A stretch of DNA of 25,629 bases from a candidate division WOR-3 bacterium (GCA_037444665.1 JBBILZ010000038.1:1-25629), one strand, 5' to 3'. Shown: positions 1,211-21,258, counted from the stretch's first letter. The notes: generated by a model not told the origin, from the sequence alone. Program-made: numbers and translations.

Positions 1211-1272
1211 TTACACTGATTACGTAAAAGTTCATAATTAAGAAAGTTTCGCCGTAAAATCCGAAATTGATG

Positions 1273-2226
1273 TCACTGGTTCCGAAGCCTATTAAACCAC
1301 GATACAAATTTTTCATTAATAATTTTATCATTAAGTGCCCTTTTGACTAAATTATATAATGAATTGCATCCAGTGTAAAGACCCAAAGAGACTTTCATTG
1401 GAGTTAGTTGGACATTCCTTTTATAGTCCACACTAATGCCAAATGGAATTTTTTGATTATCAAATTTCGCATTTGCGGTATCTTGTACAAATTCACATTG
1501 GTCGTTTTCATGTAAGGCGAATACATAACTTTGGCCAAAGTAATTTCCCAAACATTCAAATTTTTTTTCTATAGTGCTTACTTCTGATAAAAACTCGCTT
1601 TGAGTAATAGATAGAAACTGTTCATTAATTTCGCCTCTGCCATCTTTATCCACTTTGCATATATTAAAAAACCGAGCCCCCATATCTTTGGCTAAAAGCG
1701 CTGTCTTTAAGGCATCTCCAATGTTATGTTTGTTTGACACCATCGTAATTGCAAATTGTATTTTTTTGAATTCCGATAAAATTTTTAGGCCAGATATTAT
1801 TCTATCGTAAGTACCTTGGCCCCTCACTCGATCATTTATTTTAGATTCAGAACCATCTAAGCTTACATATAAATTATGTCTAAATCCAACATCGTATAAC
1901 TTTTGTAATGTGGTTTTTGTTAATAAAGACCCATTCGTACTAATTGATGGTAAAATATTAAGGCTGCGTATATATTTTATTATATTGATAAAATTAGGAT
2001 GCGCAAATGGCTCACCACCGCCCACATATAAAGTCAATACCCCTAACTTTTTAATATCCTTAATTATGCCTACAATCTCAGGAAACGATAAAAATATATT
2101 GATTTCAGGGCTAGAGTTGGAATAACAATGAAGACACCTAAAATTGCAATAACCAGTAATTGCAATATGAGCTCCTCTAAAATATATTTTCTCTTTAATA
2201 GTTACGGTATTTCTGAATGATACCAA
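1273..2226 (-). CDS. Radical SAM protein without a Cys-rich SPASM domain; candidate peptide maturase
   Basis: CNFRCLHC (CxxxCxxC), GGGEPF, STNG and VSLDG motifs; TTG start with GGAG RBS at 2232-2235; C-terminus has only scattered Cys. Confidence 0.9.
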   Translation of the reverse strand: MVSFRNTVTIKEKIYFRGAHIAITGYCNFRCLHCYSNSSPEINIFLSFPEIVGIIKDIKKLGVLTLYVGGGEPFAHPNFINIIKYIRSLNILPSISTNGSLLTKTTLQKLYDVGFRHNLYVSLDGSESKINDRVRGQGTYDRIISGLKILSEFKKIQFAITMVSNKHNIGDALKTALLAKDMGARFFNICKVDKDGRGEINEQFLSITQSEFLSEVSTIEKKFECLGNYFGQSYVFALHENDQCEFVQDTANAKFDNQKIPFGISVDYKRNVQLTPMKVSLGLYTGCNSLYNLVKRALNDKIINEKFVSWFNRLRNQ

Positions 2227-2540: not shown

Positions 2541-2680
2541 ACCCCGGCCCCCGAGGATTACGACCTTTTTGAAGGACCCTTTTCGCTGCTGATTTTTGTA
2601 GGCAGGTCTTTAATACAACCAGCATCTAAACCCACAAACCAATAACCATGCCTTTTAAACAGCAGGGGTCAGGGCCGGAA
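2541..2680 (-). ncRNA. Putative structured cis-regulatory leader RNA, copy 1
   Basis: 138/140 identical to 5951-6090; nested pairings CCGGCCC/GGGCCGG, GACCC/GGGUC, CUGCUG/CAGCAG, AGGCA/UGCCU; lies between the sigma54 promoter and the first gene. Confidence 0.55.
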
Positions 2681-2730
2681 CAGTCTGGTCTATCTGGTTT
2701 CTCTGGTTTTTTTAGTTTTTCTGGTTTCAT
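2681..2730. repeat. Degenerate 9-bp tandem repeat (e.g. TCTGGTTTC, TCTGGTCTA)
   Basis: Visible 9-nt periodicity; the homologous tract at 6091-6176 is 36 nt (4 units) longer. Confidence 0.75.
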
Positions 2731-2901: not shown

Positions 2902-2918
2902 TGCAAAAACCGTGCCAG
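2902..2918 (-). promoter_or_regulatory. Sigma54 (-24/-12) promoter, cassette C
   Basis: CTGGCACGGTTTTTGCA matches the YTGGCACGrNNNTTGCW consensus; identical at 6384-6400 and 13120-13136. Confidence 0.9.
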
Positions 2919-5950: not shown

Positions 5951-6090
5951 ACCCCGGCCCCCGAGGATTACGACCTTTTTGAAGGACCCTTCTCGCTGCT
6001 GATTTTTGTAGGCAGGTCTTTAATACAACCAGCATCTAAACCCACAAACCAATAACCATGCCTTTTAAACAGCAGGGGTCAGGACCGGAA
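5951..6090 (-). ncRNA. Putative structured cis-regulatory leader RNA, copy 2
   Basis: Differs from copy 1 at two sites: one in a predicted bulge (5992) and one changing C-G to a U-G wobble on the - strand (6084). Confidence 0.55.
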
Positions 6091-6176
6091 CTGTTTGGTC
6101 TATCTGGTTTCTCTGGTCTATTTGGTCTTTTTGGTCTGTTTAGTCTTTCTGGTTTATTTAGTTTATCTGGTTTCAT
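6091..6176. repeat. Degenerate 9-bp tandem repeat, expanded copy
   Basis: Units such as TTTGGTCTA, TCTGGTTTC, TTTAGTCTT. Confidence 0.75.
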
Positions 6177-6383: not shown

Positions 6384-6400
6384 TGCAAAAACCGTGCCAG
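6384..6400 (-). promoter_or_regulatory. Sigma54 (-24/-12) promoter, cassette B
   Basis: CTGGCACGGTTTTTGCA, consensus match. Confidence 0.9.
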
Positions 6401-6438
6401 GTGCAAGGTGTTGAAATTTCAAGAGTTTTAATTTTTCT

Positions 6439-6534
6439 TGTGCCATTTTTGGCACAGAGTTATCCACATTTTTTCCACAAAATCACGCAAACGCAGGACA
6501 GTTCAGCATCTATACGAGTGCCAAATTTGGCACA
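6439..6534. promoter_or_regulatory. Two palindromic putative upstream activating sequences GTGCCA-N4-TGGCAC
   Basis: TGTGCCATTTTTGGCACA (6439-6456) and AGTGCCAAATTTGGCACA (6517-6534), upstream of the sigma54 promoter. Confidence 0.65.
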
Positions 6535-6666: not shown

Positions 6667-6771
6667 GTCATTCTGACTCTGAGCGGAGCGAAAGGAAAGA
6701 ATCTGTAATTGAGATTCTTCGCCCGCCACTCTCCGCCACACTTCTTGGCGGATTGGCGGGCTCAGAATGAC
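6667..6771. repeat. REP/RPE-like palindromic intergenic element
   Basis: Ends GTCATTCTGA...TCAGAATGAC with inner AAGAATCT/AGATTCTT and GCCCGCCA/TGGCGGGC stems; GC-rich against an AT-rich background. Confidence 0.7.
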
Positions 6772-6830
6772 AGGTAGGATGTTGCTTGCCCTTTTTGCCT
6801 CCAATGCCTTCAATTGCCCCCAATTGCCTT

Positions 6831-8933
6831 TTAAAAATATACCAGATACTTTGCCTTTATTGCCCCAACCTGATTCTGTAACCTAAGACTGCCATTCTGA
6901 TCTGTGCGATAGTCATTTAAAGCAATATATAACCACGATTTGGGCTTAAAATTATAAGAAAAGAGAAAACCAAAGCGATTGGTCAAAAATTCTGTAGCAC
7001 CAAAGTCTGTGCCCGGTGTAGTAAAGACAAATTCATTGAAGATGCCAAAGGTCATTTTTGGGGTAATCGTAAAATCTATCCTCGGCGTTGCCATGGGCCA
7101 GATCGCAATGATTGTATTTGTCGTATCCCATTCTACCCAGGAATAAGAATCAAAATTTATTGAAACACGGGGCATTATTGTCCAGTAAAACCCATGATAG
7201 GTATTTGCCTGATACCCAAGAAATCCCCGATAATAATTGTAAGAATAACTCACATTACCACCTGCCCAGATATTATAACTTGGACCATTACCCCAGATTG
7301 ATAGATTCACATTCCTTGTAAGATAACTGGTATCTGACTCATAATAAGGCCCTGCCTCAAGCTCCAGATTCCCACCCCAATTATTCCTGAAATTGGGATT
7401 GAAACATATAAATCCAATCCTTGACCAGTCTTTTCCACCTGGTATCCGACCTATCGCACCACCAAAACCAAGCCAGAGATTCCTCATAAAACCTTTTGGG
7501 TAGGTCTTATATGGACCAGTAAAGAATAAAAACTGCCTCACACCTGCCCAGGGCACATATCCAATATCCTTTACATCAAATGAATCTCCTATCCACTGCA
7601 CACTGCCTAAAGTAAGAAAATTCTTAATAAAACCCATATACCCTGAATTGAATGCCCACCCTTTTTTGTTGTCTCTGTCACTGAATGCAGTCTGCATAAT
7701 AAACTGATTCGGACCTGAACGATATGCACCATCAAGACCAATTGCATAATTATATGTATCACTATTTACTGCTGTGCCACTGAAAAGTATGCCTAAGTCT
7801 GAGGCAGATAAAACCTTATACTTTGCCCTCAATACACCAAAGCCACGAGCCGGCTCAATCAGGGTATCATTATGCTTTATCTTATCAGTATATGCACCAA
7901 AAAGACCATAATTCAATCTCTCGGATTTACTTGTTAATTTCAAACCCCCAATTATATCCACAACTTCACTATTGATTGATTTACCTATTCTCCGCGAATA
8001 GAAAATCCGCAATGGCTTAAAGAATCCTGTACCCTGACCAAAGTCTGACATCCGAAAGATATCTGCACCCTCAAGGAAGAATGGCCTTCGCTCACTCAGA
8101 TAGGTCTCATACTGGGTTAAATTCAATGTGAATGGGTCAGATTCAATCTGGGCAAAGTCAGGAAATGCAGTGGCATTGAGTGTGGTCTGGGAAGTAATAT
8201 CCCATTTAAGATTCATACTACCACTGAATTTGGTTTCAGTCTTAACACTATCTTTATCACGGCGCAAAAAACCCTCAGGATAGATTTCAAAATAATAACC
8301 AGTTGCCTGGGGATTGATATTCTTTAATGTGCCAAACTTTGAAACGAGCATCCCCTCTTTCTGTGAGACTTCGGTCCAGTAATCAGTCTCCTGATTTGAA
8401 GAGATATAACGCTTAAAGTTTATTCCCCATTCAGAAAGTCCCTTTTTATAACGAATGGACTTGAATGGTATTTTAATCTCAACTTCATAATGGTCATCAT
8501 AGACTTTTACTGCATAATCCCAGACCCCATCCCAGGAATCGTCCCTTGTCCTGCCGTCATCAAGAACTAAACCATCAGAATATATGCCACTTATATGAAC
8601 GGCAAATGAGTAGGCGGTTGTCTTAATACCAAATGGGTCAATATATAATACAACTGCATCATCATTTGAACTCATCTGATTTACTGGCTTTGAATTCAAT
8701 GTCCAGCATCTGAATGCAACAAATAGGTTATTTTTGTCCTGTAAAAGATAGACCACTGTATTATCGGTTGGTTTTTCTTTCTCATAAGGAAAGGTCTGGA
8801 TAAAATCATAGGTAGAATCTGCATTCTGCCAGATTTCTTCAATATACCCATCAACCACTGGTGCAACCTCACAAAACCGCACCTCAAGGGATTTGTTTGC
8901 CGAACATAATAAAAAGATTATTAAAAAATCCAT
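6831..8933 (-). CDS. DUF5916 / carbohydrate-binding family 9-like putative outer-membrane protein
   Basis: N-terminal hydrophobic signal; P-VVDG...W and SWDGVW...EIKIPFKSIRY (CBM9-like); PDFAQIESD, ERRPFFLEG, FYSRRIG motifs; C-terminal KAKYLVYF beta-barrel-type ending. Confidence 0.8.
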   Translation of the reverse strand: MDFLIIFLLCSANKSLEVRFCEVAPVVDGYIEEIWQNADSTYDFIQTFPYEKEKPTDNTVVYLLQDKNNLFVAFRCWTLNSKPVNQMSSNDDAVVLYIDPFGIKTTAYSFAVHISGIYSDGLVLDDGRTRDDSWDGVWDYAVKVYDDHYEVEIKIPFKSIRYKKGLSEWGINFKRYISSNQETDYWTEVSQKEGMLVSKFGTLKNINPQATGYYFEIYPEGFLRRDKDSVKTETKFSGSMNLKWDITSQTTLNATAFPDFAQIESDPFTLNLTQYETYLSERRPFFLEGADIFRMSDFGQGTGFFKPLRIFYSRRIGKSINSEVVDIIGGLKLTSKSERLNYGLFGAYTDKIKHNDTLIEPARGFGVLRAKYKVLSASDLGILFSGTAVNSDTYNYAIGLDGAYRSGPNQFIMQTAFSDRDNKKGWAFNSGYMGFIKNFLTLGSVQWIGDSFDVKDIGYVPWAGVRQFLFFTGPYKTYPKGFMRNLWLGFGGAIGRIPGGKDWSRIGFICFNPNFRNNWGGNLELEAGPYYESDTSYLTRNVNLSIWGNGPSYNIWAGGNVSYSYNYYRGFLGYQANTYHGFYWTIMPRVSINFDSYSWVEWDTTNTIIAIWPMATPRIDFTITPKMTFGIFNEFVFTTPGTDFGATEFLTNRFGFLFSYNFKPKSWLYIALNDYRTDQNGSLRLQNQVGAIKAKYLVYF

Positions 8934-9085
8934 AAACCTCCTTTGATTGTGAAATACCGAATATCAATTAAACTCCTATTTCTAAACATTATTAAATTTC
9001 TGTCTCGCCAGCATCCCAACCACAACCCCAAACCATCTTTTATTTGTAATACGCAATTTATACAAAAAAGTTTCAATTTATTTTA

Positions 9086-9763
9086 TCATTTAACAGAAAA
9101 CCTACCGTCGTCTGGAACTTTTAAAAACAGACACCCTGCTCCCTTTTCCTTAGTCTCACGGTCAAACAGAGATAAATCAATACGCAAATATTCTTCCCTA
9201 TATTCTTTTCTTAACGCACACTGGATAAGATAACTAATAATTTGCTTACCCTTACCTGCAGATTCATTTACTGAACTGATTTCTAAAATTTCACTTCGCA
9301 CACCGTTGATTTTAATCTCAATATCGTCAGGTAATATTTTTGGTGCAATATCAACCAGCTTCATCTTTTTCACAACATCAACACCACCTTGGTTCTGAAC
9401 TCTTTTAAGACTCATCGGTCTGAAGTAAATCATTATTGACCGAATGGGCGTCTGTGGAATAAATGCATTCATTGCATAAATCTCAAGTCCATCAATGCGA
9501 GGATTAATTTTTAAATCTTTATATGCCGGAACATTCCAAACCCAGTATTCAAGATTTTTGCTCTTATAATCCTTACATGCCATCAGGGCTAAATATGTTC
9601 CGGGTTTAACTAGAATCTTATACCTGCCACTGGCATCAGAATGCGTTTTATAAAGTGTCTTAAAATCGCAACCCATAATCTCAACTTCTGCATCCACAAT
9701 AACTTTGCCTCTAAAATCTGTCACCCTGCCGGAAATTTTAGCAAGTTTTCTCTTCATCACCAT
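9086..9763 (-). CDS. Carboxypeptidase-regulatory-like (transthyretin-like fold) domain protein
   Basis: ISGRVTD...DAEVEI...SDASGRYKILVKPGTY pattern; no signal peptide; start may be 9763, 9760 or 9757. Confidence 0.65.
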   Translation of the reverse strand: MVMKRKLAKISGRVTDFRGKVIVDAEVEIMGCDFKTLYKTHSDASGRYKILVKPGTYLALMACKDYKSKNLEYWVWNVPAYKDLKINPRIDGLEIYAMNAFIPQTPIRSIMIYFRPMSLKRVQNQGGVDVVKKMKLVDIAPKILPDDIEIKINGVRSEILEISSVNESAGKGKQIISYLIQCALRKEYREEYLRIDLSLFDRETKEKGAGCLFLKVPDDGRFSVK

Positions 9764-9766
9764 AGT

Positions 9767-9794
9767 ATTTTATACAAATTTCCCTAAAATCCAA
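9767..9794 (-). promoter_or_regulatory. Possible sigma70-type promoter giving a leaderless mRNA
   Basis: TTGGAT-N16-TAAAAT directly ahead of ATG-GTG-ATG; no SD sequence. Confidence 0.4.
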
Positions 9795-9864
9795 GTGTTC
9801 CATTAATAAATACAAATCTTCACTCGGTTCTTTGTCAAAAGGTTACTTTTGTATCTTTCTCTCA

Positions 9865-11538
9865 CTATGTTGTCTTAGAGTTACAAATTTCTCCATTCTT
9901 GATTTTGTAGACATAATCTGCCATTCTTAGTAGTGAATGCCGATGTGTAGTAATTAATACCGTTCTATTTTCCGCAAGTTTCTTCAACTCCTTCAAAATC
10001 TTATCTTCTGTAGACCTATCTAAGGCTGAAGTTGGTTCATCCATAATTATAATTGGTGGTGATTTAAGAAAGATACGGGCAATGGCAATTCTCTGGCGCT
10101 CACCCCCTGAAAGAGAAAATCCACGCTCTCCAACCACTGTTTGAAAACCGCTGGGCAGTGCCACAATAAATTCATAAAGACCTGCCTTCCTTGTCGCCTC
10201 TTTAATTTCTTCTTCGGTAGCATCTAAGCGGGCAATTTGAATATTCTCATAAATAGAGCGATTAAAGATATAAGTATCTTGCTCCATCAGCCCTATCATC
10301 CTCAACCATTCTTCTAGTTTAACATCATTTAAGTCAACATTATTTATCCTTATTACGCCTGACTCAGGTTTAAGAAATCCCAAAAGTAAGTTAACAAGTG
10401 TAGTCTTTCCAGAACCAGAATATCCCATTAATGCGACTATCTTTGACCTTGGAATTTTTAAATGAATATTATTTAGGATGGGTTTGTGATTATCATAGCT
10501 GAATTTGACTCTTTCAAAGCAAATATATTCAATATTTGTTGGTAAAGGCGAGTATATTTTTTTAATTGGGGATGGTTTGTATTGGCGGAATTCATAAAGC
10601 CTTTCAATTGAAGCGATGGCAGGTTGTAGACCACTTACCAGTACGGATAAACCTCTTAGTGGCGTAGTTGCAGTCATAAAAAGGAGTATAAAACTCATAA
10701 ATCCGCCAACGGACAAACTATTTCGCATAACTTCGTTAATTCCTATCCATATAAGAACTCCCAAAATTGGAAAATATAACAGTGTAGGAATACTAGAACC
10801 AAAGATTATATTCCGCCAAGAAAAATGCCATTGGACCTTTAAGTATAGATAAAGCTGGGAGGCAAAGACTTTTTTTTCGTTCTCCTCTAAACCAAAGGCG
10901 TGAATTATATTTATCCCCTGGAGAGTCTCTTGAATTCTTGCTCCAAGTTGAGCATAATATTCTTGGATCTTTTTAGCCCAAGGGCGTAGCCGGGGCGCGA
11001 TGAAATATAAGTTTAATATAAATAGCGGATATATAGTAAGTCCGATTAGCGCAAGTTTGGAGTTAAGAGAGAGCAAGGACCAAACAAGGAAGATTGCAGA
11101 TAATACCTGACCCAAAGCCATTAAATTTTCTTTACTTATCAATTCCATAGACCCCTCTACATCCTTTAATATCCGCTGGAGTATGTATCCAGATTGTTTA
11201 GAAAAAATAACTGCCGTAGGTATTCCTAAGGAATGATTATAGAAATATTCCCGGAGAGTTTGCTCGATGCGCAGTTTTAATCTTAAAAACAAAATTCCTT
11301 TGAGAATATTAAAACAAAATCCAAAAGTAATTACCACCAGATAAATAATCCCCCATCGCATAAGAACCATTGGTTCTTTGGTATAGACGGCTGCATCAAC
11401 CAATGGTTTAATAAATAAGAAATAGCACATTGTAATAATCTCGGCAGCAATAAAAAGAATGGAAACGATAATAAAGTTTAGCCAAAGTTTATTGAAAAAG
11501 GTTGAGAAATACCAGCAAAGCAGTTTCTTTGCCTTCAT
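9865..11538 (-). CDS. ABC exporter, fused permease + ATPase, without a C39 peptidase domain
   Basis: Hydrophobic N-terminal half; Walker A GYSGSGKT, signature LSGGERQR, Walker B IIIMDEP, H-loop TTHR. Confidence 0.95.
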   Translation of the reverse strand: MKAKKLLCWYFSTFFNKLWLNFIIVSILFIAAEIITMCYFLFIKPLVDAAVYTKEPMVLMRWGIIYLVVITFGFCFNILKGILFLRLKLRIEQTLREYFYNHSLGIPTAVIFSKQSGYILQRILKDVEGSMELISKENLMALGQVLSAIFLVWSLLSLNSKLALIGLTIYPLFILNLYFIAPRLRPWAKKIQEYYAQLGARIQETLQGINIIHAFGLEENEKKVFASQLYLYLKVQWHFSWRNIIFGSSIPTLLYFPILGVLIWIGINEVMRNSLSVGGFMSFILLFMTATTPLRGLSVLVSGLQPAIASIERLYEFRQYKPSPIKKIYSPLPTNIEYICFERVKFSYDNHKPILNNIHLKIPRSKIVALMGYSGSGKTTLVNLLLGFLKPESGVIRINNVDLNDVKLEEWLRMIGLMEQDTYIFNRSIYENIQIARLDATEEEIKEATRKAGLYEFIVALPSGFQTVVGERGFSLSGGERQRIAIARIFLKSPPIIIMDEPTSALDRSTEDKILKELKKLAENRTVLITTHRHSLLRMADYVYKIKNGEICNSKTT

Positions 11539-11551
11539 ATTAAAAAATCAA

Positions 11552-12856
11552 TCAGTTTTCTTTCCTTTTTTCTGCATGCAGAAGTAGTAATTGTTTGAAT
11601 ATATACCGCCAGTAAATACAACCCGACTCGCGATTCTCAGGTTCAGTCTCTCTGCGCCGGGGGCATCCTCCTAAGCAGATAGGAACGATGGGACAACACA
11701 AACACCCTTCAGTCGCCCGCCAATTAGAAAAGATCCATTCTATGGTGCGATTTTTCTTCAAATCTATTCCAGTTTCAATGTTACCCACAGCCTTATCTTC
11801 ATCACCAACATCTTCCCAACACGCATATATTTCTCCGCATGGTCCTATCACCCAGCTAGAAAATTTTTTCCAAATACAACTATTAAAAGAAGGATAAAGG
11901 GCTGGTAATGGTAAATTCAATCGCCTCATCTCCTTTAATATCTTTAAATAATATTGACCAAAATTTGATGTCGTGAATAATGTATCTCCACGGGATTTAC
12001 ATATAGAACCTGCTTTAGAAATGACCTGGCCGAAATTAATCGTCAACCGATCCCAATTCTTTATTGAAGCAGCTAAGTCTTTTAAAAAAGGGAGCATATA
12101 TTTTTCATTCTCTTTATCAATATTTATTCTTAATTTTACCCTGATATCGATTTTATTAGCAAGGATATCAAAAATATTTCGCATTATAATATCATAGGTG
12201 CCAGTTCCATCCTTAAAAGGTCGTCGGAAGTTGTGAATTTCAGATGGGCCATCAATCGTTACTTGTGCATCTGTAATTTTACATAACGAAAAGAAATCTC
12301 TGTCGCATTCTGATATTAACGTTCCATTTGTAACCAACCCAGCGGTATATTTAATATCCCGTTTACTACATTCAGTTTGAATGGTTTGTGATATTTTAGC
12401 AATTGTATCCATCTCTAAAAGGGGTTCGCCTCCATACCAAGTAATGTGCAAAGAGGCTGGATGAAATTCATCTATCTTTTGTAGAATAAAAATAATCACC
12501 TTTTTTGTGATAGAAGCATCCATACCGACATTTTTGTTTGTAGTCGTTTCATAGCAGTAAATGCACTGCAGGTTGCAAAAAAGAGTGGGGATTATTGTGA
12601 AACTGATATTCACTGATGAATATTTCAGTGAATAATAGAGGTGGTTAACATAAGATATTTCATTAAATGCATTCGGCACCCAAAAAAGTCCTTTTACCAA
12701 CTCCTGAATCACTTCAGATGATATGGAAGTTTCTTTTCCTTCTAAAAAGGCAACTATTTTACCATCTATCTTACACAAGGCATTCGTTAACGGATTATAT
12801 GCTAAATAGTTATCTTTACCGAAAGGAATTATTAAATTAAATTTATTTTTTCGCAT
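11552..12856 (-). CDS. Radical SAM/SPASM peptide maturase
   Basis: CNLQCIYC, WYGGEPL, TNG, TIDG; SPASM C...GPCGEIYAC...CLCCPIVPICLGGC...C; ~80-aa N-terminal extension (possible RRE); start placed at MRKNKF (12856) rather than TTG 12883. Confidence 0.92.
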   Translation of the reverse strand: MRKNKFNLIIPFGKDNYLAYNPLTNALCKIDGKIVAFLEGKETSISSEVIQELVKGLFWVPNAFNEISYVNHLYYSLKYSSVNISFTIIPTLFCNLQCIYCYETTTNKNVGMDASITKKVIIFILQKIDEFHPASLHITWYGGEPLLEMDTIAKISQTIQTECSKRDIKYTAGLVTNGTLISECDRDFFSLCKITDAQVTIDGPSEIHNFRRPFKDGTGTYDIIMRNIFDILANKIDIRVKLRINIDKENEKYMLPFLKDLAASIKNWDRLTINFGQVISKAGSICKSRGDTLFTTSNFGQYYLKILKEMRRLNLPLPALYPSFNSCIWKKFSSWVIGPCGEIYACWEDVGDEDKAVGNIETGIDLKKNRTIEWIFSNWRATEGCLCCPIVPICLGGCPRRRETEPENRESGCIYWRYIFKQLLLLHAEKRKEN

Positions 12857-12904
12857 AATGCACTCTTTCTCCCTTTTATGCAAAAATTTTAATCTTTGTG
12901 AGTT

Positions 12905-12947
12905 AAAAAGGTGCCCATGTAAAGAGCATTACTTAACACGGGCACCT
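12905..12947 (-). terminator. Terminator-like hairpin between the Cys-rich peptide and the maturase
   Basis: - strand AGGUGCCCGUGU...ACAUGGGCACCU (one G-U pair) followed by a U-run. Confidence 0.75.
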
Positions 12948-12972
12948 ACCCAATATAAAAATCATCTTCCGC

Positions 12973-13092
12973 CTATTCTACTTCGTATCCAGATCCACCG
13001 AGGCAAAAACAAATAGGCGAACAAAACTCACTACATTTAACACCACATGGCCCGCCTATGGGCGATGATGGTTTTTCAATCCATGAAAGCAT
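12973..13092 (-). CDS. 39-aa Cys-rich RiPP precursor MLSWIEKPSSPIGGPCGVKCSEFCSPICFCLGGSGYEVE (not in ORF track)
   Basis: Hand-translated; AGGAGGT RBS 4 nt before ATG; ATG ~17 nt after the predicted sigma54 start site; CxxxCxxxCxxxCxC; directly upstream of rSAM/SPASM + ABC exporter. Confidence 0.85.
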   Translation of the reverse strand: MLSWIEKPSSPIGGPCGVKCSEFCSPICFCLGGSGYEVE

Positions 13093-13119
13093 TTATACCT
13101 CCTTTCGGAAATTTATATA

Positions 13120-13136
13120 TGCAAAAACCGTGCCAG
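13120..13136 (-). promoter_or_regulatory. Sigma54 (-24/-12) promoter, cassette A
   Basis: CTGGCACGGTTTTTGCA, consensus match; a sigma54 activator gene lies just upstream. Confidence 0.92.
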
Positions 13137-13174
13137 GTGCAAAGTGTTGAAATTTCAAGACTTTTAATTTTTCT

Positions 13175-13293
13175 TGTCTCATCCAGTGAGACAGGTTTTT
13201 TGAAAAATTTCAGCAAAAATCGTGTAAATGCAGGCCGGTTCTGCATTTGCGGGTGTCTCATCTGGTGAGACACCTGTCTCATAAAATGAGACA
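13175..13293. promoter_or_regulatory. Three perfect palindromes TGTCTCA-N5-TGAGACA, putative enhancer-binding-protein sites
   Basis: At 13175-13193, 13254-13272 and 13275-13293; TGT...ACA architecture typical of Fis-type EBP sites. Confidence 0.8.
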
Positions 13294-13473
13294 AACATGA
13301 AAATTTCATTAAATTTTAAGTTACACACGGTAAAACTGTTGAAATTTCATAACTTTTTTCAAAATTCTACGGCAAATTCAGTAAATTTCTAAGGGAAATG
13401 GTTGAAAATCTCTGACCGGGATATCCTTAAGAAAAATTTTAACATTCTATTTTTTTTCTTTTTGTCAGTTTTA

Positions 13474-13517
13474 GGGATTGCCACGCCCGCCGAGAATCGC
13501 GGTGGGCTCGCAATGAC
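13474..13517. repeat. Partial REP/RPE-like palindromic element
   Basis: GGGATTGCCACGCCCGCCG...CGGTGGGCTCGCAATGAC; resembles the right half of 6667-6771. Confidence 0.55.
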
Positions 13518-13556
13518 ACTGAGTATGAATAATGCGGGTTAGACCGAAGGCAAAAA

Positions 13557-15350
13557 TTAGTCACCTACTTTTTTGTTGACTATCTTGAGGTACCGATAGA
13601 GCTGGGCACGGGATATTTTTAGACTTGCACAGGTCTTTTTAATATCTTTATTGTTTGAAATAAAACATTCGTAAATTAACTTTGCTTTATATTGCTTAAC
13701 CTTTTCTTCAATTGACAATGGCTCAATAGATTTTAATCCCAAATCCTCCACACCAATCTCAGACTTTTTACAGAATAGGTATGCCTGCCTTAATATGCCT
13801 TCAAGTTCTCTAACATTTCCCGGAAAGTCATAATTTGTTAGCGCAGCTATTGCCTCCTCAGAGATGCCTTCAACAAAATTCTTAGACTGACTTTTTAACT
13901 TTAAAAATATGTGCCATACCAGTTCAGGAATCTCCTCCTTTCGTTCACGCAGGGGTGGAATCCGAATTGAAGGTGAATAGATACGATAGTATAGGTCTTC
14001 ACGGAATTTTTTATCCCGGACCATCTGCTTTAAGTCTTTATTCGTCGCAAAGATAAATCGCACATCAACTTTTTTTGCTTCATTTGAACCGAGTCTACAT
14101 ACTACCCTGTCCTCAAGCACTCGTAATAGTTTACCCTGAACATCTAAGGGCAGATCACCAACTTCATCTAAGAAGAGCGTCCCCTTATCAGCAAATACTA
14201 TCTTACCCTCACGGTCTGCGCGGGCATCAGTGAATGCACCTTTTTTATAACCGAATAACTCAGCCTCAAAGAGATTCTCAGGAATTGTATTACAATTTAC
14301 TGCCACAAATCTACCAGCTGCCCTTTTACTTTCATTATGAATCGCTGAGGCAAGCAATTCCTTGCCTGTTCCACTCTCACCAATAATCAAGATATTTGAT
14401 TCCTGATGTGCCAGACGTCTTGCCTCTCTTTTTATTGCTTTTAGTCCAATAATATCCTCAAATGTAAATTTTGCCAGTGTACTATTTATCTTCTCACTTT
14501 TTTCAAGTTCCTCCTGCACGAGTTCAAATAAGAATAAATAATTTTTATTATAAGATTTACGCACCACAAGAAAACTCTTTTCCAGTATTTGTGAGTATAT
14601 CACCCGATTTATAATCTCTTGCCTCTGCAATAATTTTTCATCAAAATAACCAGTTATATTGTTCCCTTTTTCTATTTTTAATAATTTCCCTGCACAGGGA
14701 TTGAGATAGCATATCACACCATCCAGGTCTGTCACGACTATGGCAGTATGTAAGGTATTACAAACTGAAATCACAAAATTCCCCTCTAATACATTCTCGT
14801 ATTCTTTTTCGATCAGCATTGCTAAGGTCTGAACCAGGGCAAATGTATGAGGATGACCAATTTTATGAGGATGCACTATTACAATCGTTCCTAATAATGT
14901 ATGATTATTAAAGATCGGCGCACTAAAACACGCACCTTTCTGGAAAATTTTTAGATAATATTCCTTACCGGCAACAAAGACTGGTTTCTTATGTTTGATA
15001 CTGAGGGCTACCGCATTTGTCCCTGCATCCTCTTCACGCAAGGAAACACCTTCAGCTAAATCCATACGAATGCGCTGCCGCAATATTTTATCTGGACCAA
15101 TGACTTTTATAACATAACCTTCACTATCAGTCAAAACTATTATTGAATCACACATTCTAAATATATCACTGCAAATTTTCATATAAGGGAATGCTGAGGT
15201 TATGAAAATTTCATTATCTTTTTGACATTTGATGAGCGCAGAACTGGATAGTCTCCTGGTAAGACGACGCCTATCAGGAGCAAGTCCCATTCTCTGACAA
15301 CGGTCTTTTGATTCAATTATCCATTTTTTCCGCTCATCATTTTTCTTCAT
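13557..15350 (-). CDS. Sigma54-dependent transcriptional activator (AcoR-like: GAF - PAS-like - AAA+ - Fis HTH)
   Basis: I-ES--RC-R-GL and GTNAVAL (AcoR-type N-terminus); GESGTGKE, ELFGYKKGAFTDA, TLFLDEVG, FREDLYYR, FPGNVREL; HTH LKISRAQLYRYLK; AGGAG RBS. Confidence 0.93.
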   Translation of the reverse strand: MKKNDERKKWIIESKDRCQRMGLAPDRRRLTRRLSSSALIKCQKDNEIFITSAFPYMKICSDIFRMCDSIIVLTDSEGYVIKVIGPDKILRQRIRMDLAEGVSLREEDAGTNAVALSIKHKKPVFVAGKEYYLKIFQKGACFSAPIFNNHTLLGTIVIVHPHKIGHPHTFALVQTLAMLIEKEYENVLEGNFVISVCNTLHTAIVVTDLDGVICYLNPCAGKLLKIEKGNNITGYFDEKLLQRQEIINRVIYSQILEKSFLVVRKSYNKNYLFLFELVQEELEKSEKINSTLAKFTFEDIIGLKAIKREARRLAHQESNILIIGESGTGKELLASAIHNESKRAAGRFVAVNCNTIPENLFEAELFGYKKGAFTDARADREGKIVFADKGTLFLDEVGDLPLDVQGKLLRVLEDRVVCRLGSNEAKKVDVRFIFATNKDLKQMVRDKKFREDLYYRIYSPSIRIPPLRERKEEIPELVWHIFLKLKSQSKNFVEGISEEAIAALTNYDFPGNVRELEGILRQAYLFCKKSEIGVEDLGLKSIEPLSIEEKVKQYKAKLIYECFISNNKDIKKTCASLKISRAQLYRYLKIVNKKVGD

Positions 15351-15644: not shown

Positions 15645-15672
15645 ATTATATATAAAAAGTGAAAAAAGTCAA
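15645..15672 (-). promoter_or_regulatory. Sigma70-type promoter facing the activator gene
   Basis: TTGACT-N16-TATAAT. Confidence 0.55.
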
Positions 15673-15794: not shown

Positions 15795-16358
15795 TTATAC
15801 AATCCCCAATGTTTTTGCGATAGTAATTTTTAATTCTTCTTTCATCAACTCAGCAATGACATTGAGCGAACCAAGATAGGTCGTCTTCTCTTTTTTTAAT
15901 ATAATACCACCCAGCATATTGTCATCAACCTTTATTTGAAAATTATAACCTTCCTGCGTGCAAAACTTTTCCAGCTGGCTACGGTATTTTTTAAAATCAT
16001 CTGTAGAGAGATAGAGTTCGCCCTGACTCACACCACTATTTTTTATTAATCCAGTAAGAAATTTGAAATAGTTTTTGTGCCCTGGTAATTTTTTTATTGC
16101 GGTTTGTAGCACATCATCAATATGCTTTTGCGTCTCAGCAGTCAGTTTTTTATTATAAAATAATCGCTCCTGGGCAATTGCCCGCATTATCTCTGCGTTT
16201 TTTCTTTTTTCAATTTCATCACCCAGTTTTTTTTCTGCTGCACCAATCTTTTCTTCGTATTCTTTTTTTATCTTTACTATTTCTGCTTCATATTTCTGGG
16301 CAATTGCCTCAGCCTCTTTTTTTGCCTCGTCAAGAATCTTTTCAATGACGCTCTGCAT
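15795..16358 (-). CDS. atpE: A/V-type ATP synthase subunit E
   Basis: Charged helical N-terminus (IEKILDEAKKEAEAI); C-terminal MLGGIIL motif; operon context. Confidence 0.85.
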   Translation of the reverse strand: MQSVIEKILDEAKKEAEAIAQKYEAEIVKIKKEYEEKIGAAEKKLGDEIEKRKNAEIMRAIAQERLFYNKKLTAETQKHIDDVLQTAIKKLPGHKNYFKFLTGLIKNSGVSQGELYLSTDDFKKYRSQLEKFCTQEGYNFQIKVDDNMLGGIILKKEKTTYLGSLNVIAELMKEELKITIAKTLGIV

Positions 16359-16359
16359 A

Positions 16360-16851
<492 letters not shown>

Positions 16852-16905
16852 TTAAAAAGTTTAAGGTAAATGGTTTTCTTCCATAAAAAAGCACTATTTG
16901 CTTCG

Positions 16906-18939
16906 CTACTTAATCTCCACATACTTTGTCTCCATACCAAAGGGCTTGAACATTCTACCACCGCCCGTATAAAATCTGCCAAAGAACTCAATATAATGTA
17001 AACGCATAGTATGAATAAATCCACCCAGTGCGTTTATCACTATATTAAAACTATGCCCGGCAATCAATACTACAATTGTTAGAATAACACCAACAACAGG
17101 AATCTTCAAAACCATCCAGGCAATCATATTTATGGTTATGGCAATCCCACCCGTCACCATACCGAGCGCCATTAATCTTACATAGGAAAGGACACAACTC
17201 AAAAATGAGGTGATGCCATAGAGCGTATAAAGACCCCAGGCAATTCTTCCCAGCACTTTTTTGCTCTGACGAAAACGAACAATGGCAACACCAACCAGTG
17301 CAAAAATAATATACTTGAAAAATGGCGGGAATATCTTCATCAACATTCCTATAACAAATATTACGATTAATGTCCATACACACTGGTCCAGGACCGGCGG
17401 CTTACCAGAACGATTAGAATACAGGATAATACCTGATACTGAGAGCATTATTAGAATCTTTAAAATCGGGGATTTTAATACTGTAAAATAAGCGGGCAGG
17501 CAGATGATGAGCACAAACCAGGTAAAATTTTCAAAGATTGCCCTTGCATATTCCTTATTACGGAGGTCATCAAATACTTCAATGAGCACACCGAGCAAGA
17601 CATGGACATAACCGATACCCAGTGAGAGATAAAAAAATGGCATAGGATTGGTCAGGGGATCAAAGAGCATCAATTTTTTTAAATTTTTGAAAAACCCAAT
17701 GCCAATCAGGTCAAATAGATTTCCTGCCCAGCCACCAACCATACTGCCTGTGAATATGGTGATTATACCACCAGCAAATAGTATCCACAAAAGGCTCTTA
17801 TCACCAGGCACACGGCGCATAAGATAGAGTGAAAACAATGCGAGAAATATTCCATAAATTGCATCGGTAAGGCACAGGGCAAAGAATATGGGAAAGAATA
17901 CAGCAATGAATGGCGTGGGGTCATACTCTTTTTGTTCAGGCATACTATAGAGTTTTATCAACATCTCAAATGGGCTACTCCACCAGGGGTTTTCAATTGC
18001 CACTGGTGGTCTTTCATCGGGCTCAGGCTCAACCTTCTCATAGACGACAAGTTGAAATTCGGTCACAATCCTATTGAGTTTATCAATATCTTTCTTTTTT
18101 ATCCAGCCCTTAATGCAGACTGTAGACGATGTTTCAGGAAGTGCAGAAGCAACAATATTCTTTCTAAACTCATTTTCAATCCAGTCATAAGCCATTTTTA
18201 AATTCATCGTTTCTCGGGCAAGTTCACTTTCTTTTTTATTCAATTCTTCAATACGGCTGACTATTTTTTCAATCTGTTGATTGTATTCTTTCATCAATTC
18301 AGCAGGAGTCTGGTCAATCTCGGGTAATTCTATAATCTCGCAGCCATATTCAATCAACCTGCCTTTAAATTTTTGCAGGTCTGTCTGACGTACAAAAAAT
18401 AATCCGAAGACCTTTGAGCCAATCCGATTTACAATCTCATACGAAAAAGGAATCTCAGTGATAGATTTTTCAATTGTTAATAACGATTCTTCAGATTTTA
18501 TCTGCACGACAATTGTTTGCACCTGCTTGAATCCTTTGAGTTCACTCAATCTGTGTTTTAATGGTGCAAAAGGCGTTAATATTGATACAAGATTTCTTAG
18601 ATTCTGCAACTGGTTGCGCAATGCTTCACGCTCCTGTTTTATCTGCTCAAGTTCACGGGCTGTCCCCTGAAAATCATATTTGCGGATTATCTGTTCAAAT
18701 TCCTGCATGTTCACAGGAATGCGCGGTGGCACAAAATTATCCAGCACTCCTTTTTTCTGATAATTAGAGACCTGGGCTATTGCTTCTTTCATCTTTTCCA
18801 GTTCTTCAGATGAATATATTGGTGTCTCTTTCAATTCAGTAATATGTATTATTTTCAATTTATGCAATCTATTTAGAAATGCATCTTTGATACTTTTATG
18901 GACAACTATTACAACCTTTTCTAATCTGACCGTTGCCAT
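16906..18939 (-). CDS. atpI: A/V-type ATP synthase subunit I (a)
   Basis: YSMP...DPTPF, TDAIYG, LSYVRLMAL (essential Arg), HTMRLHYIEFFGRFY. Confidence 0.95.
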   Translation of the reverse strand: MATVRLEKVVIVVHKSIKDAFLNRLHKLKIIHITELKETPIYSSEELEKMKEAIAQVSNYQKKGVLDNFVPPRIPVNMQEFEQIIRKYDFQGTARELEQIKQEREALRNQLQNLRNLVSILTPFAPLKHRLSELKGFKQVQTIVVQIKSEESLLTIEKSITEIPFSYEIVNRIGSKVFGLFFVRQTDLQKFKGRLIEYGCEIIELPEIDQTPAELMKEYNQQIEKIVSRIEELNKKESELARETMNLKMAYDWIENEFRKNIVASALPETSSTVCIKGWIKKKDIDKLNRIVTEFQLVVYEKVEPEPDERPPVAIENPWWSSPFEMLIKLYSMPEQKEYDPTPFIAVFFPIFFALCLTDAIYGIFLALFSLYLMRRVPGDKSLLWILFAGGIITIFTGSMVGGWAGNLFDLIGIGFFKNLKKLMLFDPLTNPMPFFYLSLGIGYVHVLLGVLIEVFDDLRNKEYARAIFENFTWFVLIICLPAYFTVLKSPILKILIMLSVSGIILYSNRSGKPPVLDQCVWTLIVIFVIGMLMKIFPPFFKYIIFALVGVAIVRFRQSKKVLGRIAWGLYTLYGITSFLSCVLSYVRLMALGMVTGGIAITINMIAWMVLKIPVVGVILTIVVLIAGHSFNIVINALGGFIHTMRLHYIEFFGRFYTGGGRMFKPFGMETKYVEIK

Positions 18940-19241
18940 TTTAGAATAATCTCCTGCACCTTTTCTACTGCCCTGTTTTTTGATTCTTTTATTTTATTAT
19001 TCAATTCTTTACTCATTTTCTTATATTCTTCTTCAATCACTTTGCGCTGTTCTGCAACAATCTTCTCTACCTGTTTCTGACTCTCTTTTATATACTCACT
19101 CCGTTTCTGACTTATACTATCAAGCTTCTGTTGCAGTTCTGCTCTTGTCTGTTCAAGGGTTTGCATTCCTTTTTGTTCTGCCTGTTTTTTTATCTTTTCT
19201 GCTTCTGCCTCTGCCTTTTTAATCTCTTCAATTAAATCCAT
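18921..19241 (-). CDS. A/V-type ATP synthase subunit H/G (peripheral stalk)
   Basis: 106 aa, fully helical and charged (IEEIKKAEAEAEKIK); immediately before subunit I. Confidence 0.75.
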   Translation of the reverse strand: MDLIEEIKKAEAEAEKIKKQAEQKGMQTLEQTRAELQQKLDSISQKRSEYIKESQKQVEKIVAEQRKVIEEEYKKMSKELNNKIKESKNRAVEKVQEIILKWQRSD

Positions 19242-19246
19242 TTTAC

Positions 19247-19867
19247 CTACCTTTTACCAAGAATCTCTTTTACCCGCATTAATCTGGTTAAATCTCCCCT
19301 CTCAATTTCTGATAATTTTAGATTGATATATTTTATCGTCTCTTCAATGGATGGAATAAGAATAAATTCAAGGGCATTTACCCGACGTCTGGTTTTTTCA
19401 ATTTCAATCGCAAGAATCTCTAATGCCTTTTCCAGTTCTGCAATCCTGAGCAGACCTTCAAGCAAGCTATCAATCTTTTTCAGTGCCAGATCAAGGTCTC
19501 CAGATGTGCTTAAAAATCCATAACTGAGTATTGTCCCGGAGATTTTTTTGGTAAACTTTGGAATGCGCACATTAAAGACCCGCTCTGAACTATAATCTAT
19601 TTCAATTTTTTTATTCGCACCCAACAATGCTTCTTCTGTAGTATTTGGTGATTGCTTGCTTGAGGCAAAATAAAAATAGTTGTATGCAGACTGCAGTTCT
19701 TTTTCAACAGTGAGCCTCAGTTCCTGAATCTGTTTTACCAATTCCATTATCTTTCTTATCAATTCATCCTGTTTGTCCTTTAATAGTTTATGGCCACGCC
19801 GGGCAATCACATTCCTGCGCTTCAATCTCAGAAGTTGCATCCTGGTTGGAGGAATATCCAATTTCAT
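19247..19867 (-). CDS. atpD: A/V-type ATP synthase subunit D
   Basis: PTRMQL...RGHKLLKDKQDEL; EIEKTRRRVNALE. Confidence 0.96.
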   Translation of the reverse strand: MKLDIPPTRMQLLRLKRRNVIARRGHKLLKDKQDELIRKIMELVKQIQELRLTVEKELQSAYNYFYFASSKQSPNTTEEALLGANKKIEIDYSSERVFNVRIPKFTKKISGTILSYGFLSTSGDLDLALKKIDSLLEGLLRIAELEKALEILAIEIEKTRRRVNALEFILIPSIEETIKYINLKLSEIERGDLTRLMRVKEILGKR

Positions 19868-19884
19868 ATTATCTCAATTTAATT

Positions 19885-21258
19885 TTATTTTGTATCATAA
19901 TATTTTTTCAGATACTCTTCTCTCACCCTTTTCATCTCTGCTCTTGGCACAAGCCTTAAGAGTTCCCAGCCTAAATTGAGGGTCTGCTCAATGGTTCGGT
20001 TTTCGTATTCATCCTGATTAATGTATCGCTGTTCAAATATTGTAGCAAACTTTAGATAAATCTTATCCGTATCAGAGAGTGCTGCTTCACCAAGAATAAT
20101 GGCAAGTTCCTGTGCCTCTTTTCCTCTTGAATAACAGGCAATCAATTGATTGAATAAGTCTGCATGGTCTTCACGGGTCTTGCCCTTACCAATACCTTTA
20201 TCCTTTAATCGTGAGAGTGATTGCATCACATCCACTGGCGGTAGAATTTTTTTGCGATATAGTGCGCGGGAGAGGATGATCTGACCTTCAGTAATATAAC
20301 CGGTCAAATCTGGAATAGGATGGGTCTTATCGTCCTCAGGCATAGTGAGAATAGGAATCAAAGTGATAGAACCCTTTTTTCCTTTAATCCTTCCTGACCG
20401 TTCATAGACTGTTGCGAGGTCTGTATAAAGATAGCCTGGATAGCCACGACGACCTGGAATCTCTTTTCTTGCCGCAGAGATTTCGCGGAGTGCCTCAGCA
20501 TAATTTGTCATATCACTAAGGATAACAAGAATATGATAACCTTTGGTAAAGGCGAGATACTCAGCAACCGTGAGCACCACCCTTGGTGTAGAGACCCTTT
20601 CTATTGCCGGGTCATCGGTCAGATTCAAAAACAACACAACCTTTTCCAGAGCACCAGTAGTAGTAAAATTACTGATGAAAAAGTTTGCCTCTTCAAATGT
20701 AATACCCATCGCACCAAAAACAATTGCAAACTCTTCACCTTTCTGTAGCACAGTTGCCTGACGCACAATCTGGGCGGCAAGCCGATTATGGGGAAGGCCA
20801 GAACCAGAAAATATAGGAAGTTTCTGACCCCGCACAAGGGTATTAATACCATCTATTGCCGAGATACCGGTCTGGATAAATTCATTGGGATAATCGCGCG
20901 CAGTAGGATTAATTGGCGCACCATTAATATCAAGAAGTGCCTCTGGAACAATATCCGGACCTTCATCAATGGGCCTTCCCAGACCATCAAAGACCCGACC
21001 GAGCATCTTTGATGATACACCAATCTGCATTGTTTTTGCCAGAAACCGCACACGGCAATTTGCTACATCAATGCCAGACGAACCTTCAAAGATTTGAACC
21101 AATGCCTTATCACCATTAACTTCAAGAACCCTGCCCCTTTTCCTCTCACCGGTCTGGGTATAAATCTCAACAAGCTCCTCGTATTTGACACCTTCTGTTC
21201 CTTCAACGAGCAAAAGGGGACCACTTACACTTGCAATACTCGTGTATTCCTTAATCAT
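19885..21258 (-). CDS. atpB: A/V-type ATP synthase subunit B
   Basis: [43 protein letters not shown]. Confidence 0.98.

Follow-up and report, generated by a model that had tools for sequence, protein, structure and literature searches.

A predicted sigma-54-dependent operon for a cysteine-rich, radical SAM-modified peptide in a candidate division WOR-3 bacterium

A 25,629-nucleotide (nt) stretch of DNA from a candidate division WOR-3 bacterium (GCA_037444665.1, JBBILZ010000038.1:1-25629; the whole of it is called the window here) carries four consecutive genes on its minus strand between positions 9865 and 15350: a sigma-54 activator, a 39-codon open reading frame (ORF), a radical S-adenosylmethionine (SAM)/SPASM protein and an ATP-binding cassette (ABC) exporter. 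It is likely that the last three form an operon for a RiPP (a ribosomally synthesised, post-translationally modified peptide), in which the ORF encodes the precursor, the radical SAM protein is its maturase, and a product that likely contains thioethers is exported by the ABC protein, all expressed from a sigma-54 promoter. An earlier note on the window had proposed a precursor, a radical SAM/SPASM enzyme and a peptidase-less ABC exporter behind such a promoter, and this arrangement is borne out by the ORFs, the profile matches and the consensus box.

The precursor, its maturase and the exporter

The 39-codon ORF translates to MLSWIEKPSSPIGGPCGVKCSEFCSPICFCLGGSGYEVE, with Cys at positions 16, 20, 24, 28 and 30, no Asp, and GG at 13-14 and 32-33, exactly as the earlier note had stated. 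The Cys residues follow one another in steps of 4, 4, 4 and 2 (C-x3-C-x3-C-x3-C-x-C), and the peptide can be divided into a docking motif (MLSWIEKP), a linker (SSPIGG) and a core (PCGVKCSEFCSPICFCLGGSGYEVE). A Shine-Dalgarno box (AAAGGAGG) ends 5 nt upstream of the ATG. A full HMMER pass over 1.84 billion representatives returned a sole relative, P0121 (38 residues, E 1.3e-13, 79% identity), in which MLxWIEKP, E22-F23, S25-P26, the terminal GYEVE and each of the five Cys are unchanged, with 30 of 39 columns kept. The peptide had no family match in Pfam or in NCBIfam, in the latter even at E 10, and no significant match in the 271 other genomes of the phylum (best E 0.01). In the ESM Atlas its top match was an unnamed 39-residue cluster (0.90), and lower matches (0.79-0.84) were putative sactipeptide or bacteriocin precursor families of Bacillota; both are leads only. 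Because P0121 keeps all five Cys and the leader motif recurs on the maturase strand of related loci, as described below, sequence comparison confirms the ORF as a genuine gene, beyond chance.

The maturase ORF spans 11552..12883, and the ATG at 12856 is the start in all homologues, giving 434 residues. The protein contains both the radical SAM motif CxxxCxxC (C94/C98/C101) and the seven-Cys SPASM motif (C327, C346, C385, C388, C394, C398 and C413) that mark the radical SAM/SPASM maturases, and all of these Cys are invariant in an alignment of 104 relatives. Its domain scores are 47.6 bits for the SPASM model TIGR04085 (cut-off 27) and 51.3 bits for PF04055. In an AlphaFold2 model built from the 104-row alignment, with a predicted local distance difference test (pLDDT) score of 93.5, the N-terminus before the barrel is formed by strands 8-11, 16-21 and 26-31 and helices 32-38, 47-55 and 66-78. 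Three strands and three helices ahead of the barrel are the layout of a RiPP recognition element (RRE), while the Pfam PqqD/RRE models gave no match. The top Foldseek match was CteB (5WHY/5WGG) over its full length (E 2e-19, template-modelling (TM) score 0.67-0.70, 16-18% identity), followed by anSME and then by ChlB, TigE (8VPO) and SuiB, with PqqE and EpeE also among the matches. CteB was again the top match in a sequence search of the PDB (E 6e-26).

A search of NCBIfam, suggested earlier as a check, did match the maturase to families of radical SAM enzymes of RiPPs, though always below the cut-off. The top match was the Clo7bot family TIGR04334 (238.7 bits against a cut-off of 600; 12-439 on 2-435 of 440), followed by TIGR04463 (232 against 525), CefB NF038107 (214.1 against 600), the geopeptide maturase (167 against 400), FlmE/OhkG (163 against 500), PapB NF047865 (125.9 against 340), the SCIFF maturase TIGR03974 (78 against 425) and RumMC (51.7 against 720). 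The top families are all maturases of "Cys-rich peptides", and the window protein is far under the cut-off of each. Membership of the CXXX-repeat family TIGR04115 was ruled out (85.5 bits against 350).

Close relatives of the maturase are few. Five were found among 5.8 billion protein clusters (73, 68, 67, 63 and 55% identity; P0002-P0006), each of them a single-member metagenome cluster, and the next relatives are at most 33% identical. None above 34% identity was present in 272 genomes of the phylum, and none that was close in one genome per species for 185,579 species, where the best 80 of the confirmed relatives were 27-34% identical. By these comparisons, the maturase and the peptide are a rare clade and a new branch of a widespread Clo7bot-like superfamily.

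The link between peptide and enzyme was examined in 98 related loci whose maturases are about 30% identical to that of the window (19 of them from the phylum, one on a metagenome contig and the other 78 in species genomes). ORFs with the start M-x(1-2)-[FWY]-[ILV]-x-x-P and at least three Cys within 2.5 kb of the maturase gene were found on its strand in 51 loci (93 ORFs, 82 of them unique, 1-8 copies per locus); on the opposite strand, where the number of candidate ORFs was similar (2205 against 2233), there were 4 in 2 loci. Many of the 98 loci are kin, with about a dozen Collinsella loci nearly identical to one another and L017, L031 and L041 forming one cluster, so these counts overstate independence. 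In the 82 unique ORFs the aromatic position is F (37), W (29) or Y (16), and the next residue is usually I (57) or L (23). The distance of the first Cys from the N-terminus is usually 13-23 residues; in the window peptide it is at position 16. The commonest Cys spacing is CxxxC (100 of 370 gaps), CxxxCxxxC occurs in 25 of the 82, and Cys is the sole constant feature of the cores. A Wallbacteria locus (L049) encodes five tandem peptides with the start M(K/N)WIEKP.

Structure prediction of the maturase together with the peptide gave a complex score of 0.83 (0.83, 0.82 and 0.83 in the separate runs), compared with 0.02 for the best of three controls; among solved complexes 116 of 157 attain the mark applied to this score, and among mismatched pairs 2 of 215 do. 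Contact agreement between the runs was at least 45% and partner pLDDT at least 46. Confident contacts join peptide residues 1-12 with maturase residues 18, 21, 24-31, 34, 49, 52-57, 73, 76-77 and 80, such that the modelled leader lies on strand 24-31 of the N-terminal domain. The model supports this docking mode of the leader on the N-terminal domain, short of demonstrating binding. A structure of CteB with a bound leader has been solved, so the high score may reflect likeness to CteB.

The exporter gene begins 13 nt past the maturase stop. The alignment of its product to bacteriocin and peptide-cleaving exporters begins only at about profile position 159, and the protein therefore lacks the C39 peptidase domain, as had been claimed. 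The C39 domain (PF03412) was likewise not found in the 99.5%-complete genome, while control genomes were positive. Its absence is no oddity. ABC genes occur in 44 of the 98 related loci, and because 27 of the 29 ABC proteins with long alignments have at most 26 extra N-terminal residues, peptidase-less export is, as judged from these proteins, the norm in the Clo7bot-like superfamily. Arg/Pro-rich extensions of 132 and 74 residues in the ABC proteins of L066 and L038 look like over-extended ORFs in GC-rich DNA. Processing by a C39 peptidase at a double glycine was ruled out, since neither the exporter nor the genome has the domain and GG13-14 reads AG in P0121, in which G13 is replaced by A. 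Both GG pairs are present in the window peptide, but the first carries less weight than had been implied.

Between the precursor and maturase genes lies a hairpin. The 92 nt around it (12884-12975) fold with -28.8 kcal/mol (z -4.08), and 1 of 200 shuffles folded equally well. It is probably a terminator-like attenuator, attenuation being what we infer from its form, or a transcript-stabilising element.

Promoter, activator and enhancers

The precursor gene is preceded by TGGCACGGTTTTTGCA, a full sigma-54 -24/-12 consensus. The standard sigma-54 spacing rule places the transcript start near 13109 and gives a 17-nt untranslated region, in agreement with the length of about 17 nt given earlier. 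The genome encodes rpoN and contains 25 consensus sigma-54 sites, compared with 0 for the reversed pattern. The activator has an N-terminal sensor region containing a GAF domain (31.8 bits, spanning residues 63-182), then an AAA+ domain that carries a GAFTDA loop (Sigma54_activat, 219.9 bits) and a C-terminal Fis-type helix-turn-helix (HTH) with the recognition helix ISRAQLYRYLK. Its top NCBIfam matches are PrdR (310 bits against 795) and DhaR-like models, and it is under the cut-off of every named regulator. With the box, rpoN, the AAA+ domain with its GAFTDA loop and dyad sites, the sequence contains all the features looked for in a promoter activated by an enhancer-binding protein (EBP). 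In this it resembles the systems of NtrC/DhaR/PrdR-type activators, which likewise combine GAF, AAA+ and Fis-type HTH domains with two to three dyad sites 40-175 nt upstream of TGGCAC-N5-TTGCA; it differs in the scores of its activator and in its target, a RiPP operon.

The dyad sites are exact copies of TGTCTCA-N5-TGAGACA. There are 3 of these in the 2.54-Mb genome, all in the intergenic region between activator and precursor, where they begin 264 nt beyond the activator stop codon; their 79/21-nt spacing is repeated in a sister species (L142). The helix ISRAQLYRYLK occurs in one of the nine EBPs of the genome, that of the window. Another palindrome, AAATGCAG-N7-CTGCATTT, lies at 13226-13248, between enhancer sites 1 and 2. 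Nearer to the promoter is a module that stands before four sigma-54 promoters, three of them in the window and the fourth on contig C39 of the same genome. Its palindrome TGAAATTTCA stands 11-12 nt upstream of TGGCAC in all four (13148-13157, 6412-6421 and 2930-2939 in the window; G000:C39:19243-19252), while the control pattern gave 0. This element may be a site for a shared co-regulator or an IHF-like (integration host factor) site, and the TCAA-N4-TTG stretch beside it we take to be IHF-like.

Full-length orthologues of the activator (56-92% identity) are found in most genomes of the family, usually after V-type ATPase genes, and their enhancers vary with the recognition helix. The four genomes with an SRAQ helix (G000, which is that of the window, G114, G118 and G120) contain 3, 2, 2 and 2 exact TGTCTCA-N5-TGAGACA sites genome-wide, whereas the five genomes of the same genus with SERQ (G115, G116, G117, G119 and G123) contain 0 each. 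In G116, two CTGACAT-N3-ATGTCAG palindromes 79 nt apart and a sigma-54 promoter lie directly after the activator gene, and in G125, which has the SERQ helix, belongs to another genus and stands outside the genome-wide count, the same arrangement of CTGACAT-N3-ATGTCAG pair and sigma-54 promoter lies beside the gene. The G000 and G116 activators are 91% identical overall, yet differ at 8 of 23 positions in the HTH segment, so the helix type does not simply follow relatedness. Through this covariation there is good, though indirect, support for binding of the three TGTCTCA palindromes by the window activator.

Sigma-54 control of such an operon had been called unusual. It is present here, but is not unique. 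In 10 of the 98 related loci a sigma-54 consensus lies 40-502 nt upstream of the maturase start and on the strand of that gene; they represent about six independent lineages that include Ignavibacteria and a metagenome-assembled genome of Saccharicenans; shuffling predicts about one site in the whole 809 kb of these loci. An EBP is encoded in 8 of the 98. Sigma-54 control thus appears to recur among the environmental members of the superfamily, as well as in other radical SAM operons of the genus. A literature search, with subscription journals outside its reach, found no paper linking sigma-54/EBP control to a RiPP cluster.

Table 1. Predicted features of the operon and its control region; positions are those of the window.
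Feature	Position	Strand	Basis
Putative sigma-70-like promoter TTGACT-16-TATAAT before the activator gene	15645..15672	-	consensus scan only, 11/12 matches
Sigma-54 enhancer-binding protein, 597 residues	13557..15350	-	Pfam and NCBIfam matches
Enhancer palindrome 3, TGTCTCA-N5-TGAGACA	13275..13293	.	exact palindrome, genome scan
Enhancer palindrome 2, 21 nt from palindrome 3	13254..13272	.	genome scan
Enhancer palindrome 1, spaced 79 nt from palindrome 2 and lying some 40 nt upstream of the -24 box	13175..13193	.	
Promoter-proximal module, palindrome TGAAATTTCA and TCAA-N4-TTG stretch	13136..13165	-	conserved among promoters
Sigma-54 promoter TGGCAC-N5-TTGCA, predicted start near 13109	13120..13135	-	
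Precursor peptide, 39 residues	12973..13092	-	ORF, homologue, leader motif
Hairpin between precursor and maturase genes, 12 bp, G+C-rich, then U5	12904..12947	-	folding and consensus scan
Predicted RRE, radical SAM and SPASM maturase, 434 residues	11552..12856	-	profiles, alignment, model
Predicted ABC exporter (transmembrane and nucleotide-binding domains), 557 residues, without C39 peptidase domain	9865..11538	-	
Segment of about 6.8 kb missing from the closest sister species, G116	6787..13628	.	blastn colinearity with L134

Relation to known systems and competing readings

The closest family is Clo7bot (TIGR04334/TIGR04333, Clostridia), whose maturase model is the top match of the window protein and aligns to it end to end. 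Precursors of true members start MKFIKKP, have CxxxC-rich cores and adjoin peptidase-less ABC exporters; the window peptide combines the same type of N-terminal motif (MLSWIEKP, compared with MKFIKKP and with MKWIEKP in L049) with a Cys-rich core. It differs in that the window maturase is about 30% identical to true members and well below the cut-off of TIGR04334, on which the positive controls L102, L105 and L086 score 823.8, 726.6 and 714 bits. Likewise, TIGR04333 matched neither the window peptide (E up to 10) nor P0121 (E up to 1), while four true Clo7bot peptides scored 27.9-52.5 bits (cut-off 31). Because true Clo7bot loci score high as controls, the models work and the window pair lies outside the family. 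The window further has a single precursor rather than tandem arrays, a sigma-54 promoter and a non-Firmicute genome. The Clo7bot likeness noted earlier thus stands at the level of the superfamily (top family, [FWY]-I-x-K-P, CxxxC) but not as membership. The same literature search found no paper using the name "Clo7bot" or describing what Clo7bot-like enzymes do to peptides. In the portions available, PMC12703449, the source of the FlmE/OhkG model, is concerned with arginases of "DD(I/V)LF" precursors and does not study the radical SAM enzyme, and PMC10288494 does not treat the Clo7bot-like family.

The second and third best families, TIGR04463 and CefA/CefB (NF038108/NF038107), have precursors with a similar short N-terminal motif, and the MEYIVQP... 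peptide of L012 weakly matches CefA. The maturase is below both cut-offs, however, the window peptide has Cys every fourth residue rather than every fifth, and it has no match to CefA (NF038108). In structure the nearest relative is CteB of the SCIFF system (Clostridium thermocellum), the closest solved structure by both sequence and fold, with an RRE, radical SAM and SPASM domains and two auxiliary clusters; the docking modelled for the window leader resembles the solved leader complex. Against this stand the low structural-alignment identity, the TIGR03974 score, and the absence of a SCIFF signature and of any precursor family match. Hairpin sactipeptides such as thuricin CD and subtilosin A presumably share the i, i+4 spacing of donor Cys, but the maturase is far from the AlbA- and RumMC-type families, and the sactipeptide hairpin is an unlikely fit because the tail of 9 residues beyond the last Cys is too short to give each Cys an acceptor. 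The ranthipeptide system PapB/freyrasin (NF047865) also combines a radical SAM/SPASM maturase with repeated short Cys units in the core. The specificity of PapB is given in the available part of PMC9413430 as Cys/Asp or Cys/Glu, forming Cys-X3-Asp/Glu rings. In the window peptide there is no Asp, and no Cys is followed by a Glu four residues on, so such rings are impossible as such; CxxxD rings are ruled out, as had been argued earlier. Judged by these comparisons, the window system is like Clo7bot, TIGR04463 and CefA/CefB in its working and like CteB/SCIFF in its structure, and fails the curated family cut-offs that were run.

The following course of events is suggested for the operon. The GAF activator would bind the three TGTCTCA-N5-TGAGACA palindromes and convert an intracellular signal into promoter opening, and the mRNA would start about 17 nt before the precursor ATG. 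The terminator-like hairpin would leave more precursor than enzyme message. The W-I-E-K-P stretch of the peptide would then form a beta-strand docked on the maturase's RRE-like N-terminal domain, as modelled, and the enzyme would modify the Cys-rich core, most likely by intramolecular thioethers from Cys sulfur to carbon of neighbouring residues. The product would leave through the peptidase-less ABC transporter, its short leader being either retained or removed by an unlinked protease. Thioether links are probably the chemistry of the maturase because of its likeness to CteB and because nothing but Cys is constant in the cores. As the product, a secreted peptide for competition or signalling is most likely, a role suggested because the cargo varies between sister species under one regulator, as at bacteriocin loci.

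Several observations weigh against this account. The fold matches of the maturase include SPASM enzymes whose products are not thioethers, namely TigE, SuiB and PqqE. Among sequencing runs, a single DNA run contains the stretch and may be its source, and no RNA run contains it. In the complex model the peptide core is not confidently placed (partner pLDDT 46-47), and low-error contacts are confined to residues 1-12. The compared genomes are kin, so the covariation counts are not independent, and three genomes are imperfect fits to it: G124 (helix SARQ) has 1 TGTCTCA palindrome elsewhere in its genome and a CTGACAT site beside the gene, G122 (helix SRRT) has 1 palindrome, also elsewhere, and in G121, which has 2 palindrome sites, the activator orthologue is cut by the contig end and the helix is not visible. 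Finally, the activator is conserved in 15 of 15 other family genomes while no close orthologue of maturase or peptide exists in the phylum's 271 other genomes, and hence the activator is not a private part of the operon.

Among the alternatives, it is unlikely that the operon makes a RiPP of a different kind, with C-C or C-O cross-links on F23, F29 or Y36, an epimerisation or a side-chain rearrangement, and with the Cys serving as disulfides or metal ligands. The fold matches just mentioned, of which TigE 8VPO reaches a TM of 0.70 and to which the epimerase EpeE can be added, are in its favour, as are the cyclophane-forming maturases among the weaker NCBIfam matches and the conservation or conservative replacement of F23, Y/F29 and Y36 in P0121. 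Thioethers are preferred because Cys alone is constant in the 82 unique precursor cores, the thioether synthase CteB is the best match in both structure and sequence, and the best curated families are all maturases of Cys-rich peptides.

It is improbable, too, that the activator serves the next sigma-54 locus, as it does in G116, and that the TGTCTCA palindromes are bound by some other factor. The orthologue in G116, 91% identical, stands directly before the counterpart of window 6787-6123, the operon being missing there, and the TGTCTCA-type palindromes of G122 and G124 occur without an SRAQ-helix orthologue at this position. Yet helix and enhancer covary (4/4 versus 0/5), no other EBP of the genome has the window helix, the palindromes lie just past the activator gene, and the next promoter (6384-6399) has different palindromes, GTGCCA-N4-TGGCAC.

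Little credence is given to the idea that the modified peptide stays in the cell as a cofactor-like product, in the manner of the pyrroloquinoline quinone (PQQ) and mycofactocin precursors, or as a redox-active or metal-binding peptide, with the ABC protein transporting some other substrate. In its favour, metal could be bound by five Cys within 15 residues, the operon has no recognisable gene for immunity or for a protease, and no C39 peptidase was found in the genome. On the other hand, the ABC gene follows the maturase stop almost at once, such exporters are frequent in the related loci, and variation of cargo under one regulator is what competition peptides, unlike cofactors, show. A chance ORF or a decaying remnant, as which the missing annotation of the ORF and the great rarity of the maturase clade might be read, is close to refuted by the conserved homologue, the strong Shine-Dalgarno box, the consensus promoter, the superfamily leader motif, the intact catalytic Cys and the three open frames.

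Exchange of cargo and the neighbouring loci

In its locus L134, G116, the closest sister species, runs parallel to the window between 16833 and 13628 (colinear in blastn, 93-96% nucleotide identity) and then resumes at 6787; because of this jump, G116 is taken to be without a segment of about 6.8 kb. The segment contains the RiPP operon, a gene for a 225-residue protein with a CarboxypepD_reg domain (9086..9763), which has no relative in the 98 related loci, and a DUF5916/CBM9 gene (6831..8933). Elements resembling repetitive extragenic palindromes, gtcattgcgagc / gtcattctgagc, lie at both of its borders (about 13480-13535 and 6700-6780). A GC-skewed foreign island was ruled out, the GC content of 0.34-0.38 being near the flank values. 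At the equivalent place in G116 (L134:3800-4791), after the activator, come CTGACAT-N3-ATGTCAG palindromes and the promoter module also seen in the window, then a leader rich in A/G, small ORFs and the first part of a protein whose N-terminus is RRE-like, so that by its content the site holds a different peptide cargo. Other species of the genus have the TGTCTCA palindromes and the promoter module before a SCIFF/PapB-like radical SAM gene (L143), before a 45-residue Cys-rich peptide with a different radical SAM enzyme (L147) and before a Clo7bot-like radical SAM gene (L142). It is proposed from these gene contents that the operon is a species-specific cargo on a regulatory platform conserved in the genus.

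A more far-reaching reading joins these elements into one plug-in platform of the genus for peptide products. It would consist of the conserved GAF activator beside the V-type ATPase operon, an enhancer that is switched together with the recognition helix (TGTCTCA-N5-TGAGACA for SRAQ, CTGACAT-N3-ATGTCAG for SERQ) and a promoter module that is portable and some 55 nt long, and the platform would have been coupled repeatedly to unrelated radical SAM cargo. The cargo of the window would found a new subfamily of thioether peptides, with a (C-x3)3-C-x-C core and a 9-residue tail outside the sactipeptide hairpin and Cys-X3-Asp topologies and with a docking tag of about eight residues as its leader. 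As a whole, this is a tentative proposal, possible but on balance doubtful.

Two other sigma-54 promoters lie at 6384-6399(-) and 2902-2917(-) in the window and have the 16-mer and the module of about 55 nt in common with the promoter of the operon; G000:C8:27538-27553(+) is listed alongside them. Their upstream palindromes are different, GTGCCA-N4-TGGCAC occurring twice at 6440-6533. Downstream of both are 170-200 nt of A/G-rich repeats (GGCGAAAA / GGGTAAAGAA units), and then a small ORF, MKP(D/E)KL...SGPDPCCLKGMVIGLWV (6036..6176 and about 2626..2730). Both small ORFs stop 8 codons past CCL, at C UGU UUA AAA GGC with a U_UUA_AAA slippery heptamer, and the -1 frame runs on to ...KRHGYWFVGLDAGCIKDLPTKISSEKGPSKRS* (regions 2558-2680(-) and 5968-6090(-)). 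In homologues of sister species (L144:2042-2284(-) and L162:1366-1752(-)), directly upstream of Clo7bot-like radical SAM genes, this frame is part of a single ORF, and it is also uninterrupted in a paralogue on contig C54 of the window genome. Either a -1 frameshift is programmed here, or both ORFs are copies of one pseudogene with a frameshift. Downstream of the promoter ending at 2917 and its small ORFs, a second radical SAM protein (317 residues) and a class I methyltransferase are encoded at 440-2226(-), possibly as another peptide-modification operon. The top matches of this protein are of the mycofactocin/ScmE type, under the cut-off and spanning about residues 15-255 only. The first 31 codons of the DUF5916 gene (8840-8933(-)) are duplicated at the left edge of the window (2-94(-)), and therefore a DUF5916 paralogue appears to follow the methyltransferase gene. 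On the other side of the activator gene, the V-type ATPase operon occupies 15795-24248 and adjoins the N-terminus of an IS481-like transposase (HTH_32, LZ_Tnp_IS481), which runs off the right edge at 24377-25627(+).

In summary, the enzyme class and the gene order of the operon are familiar, while the rare clade, the single short precursor, the minimal leader and the sigma-54/EBP module are distinctive. Clo7bot-like radical SAM/SPASM systems are very widespread, with 571 relatives confirmed in the species-level search, including Acidobacteria, Ignavibacteria, Clostridia and the gut genus Collinsella. For these, the operon is a compact test case, with one short precursor, one enzyme, one pump and a clear docking motif. 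Control by sigma-54 and a sensor-bearing activator has seldom been described for RiPPs, and here the DNA specificity can be read from natural covariation of helix and enhancer, such that activator-enhancer pairs could serve as orthogonal switches. The signal of the GAF domain, if identified, would tell when uncultured subsurface bacteria deploy such peptides.

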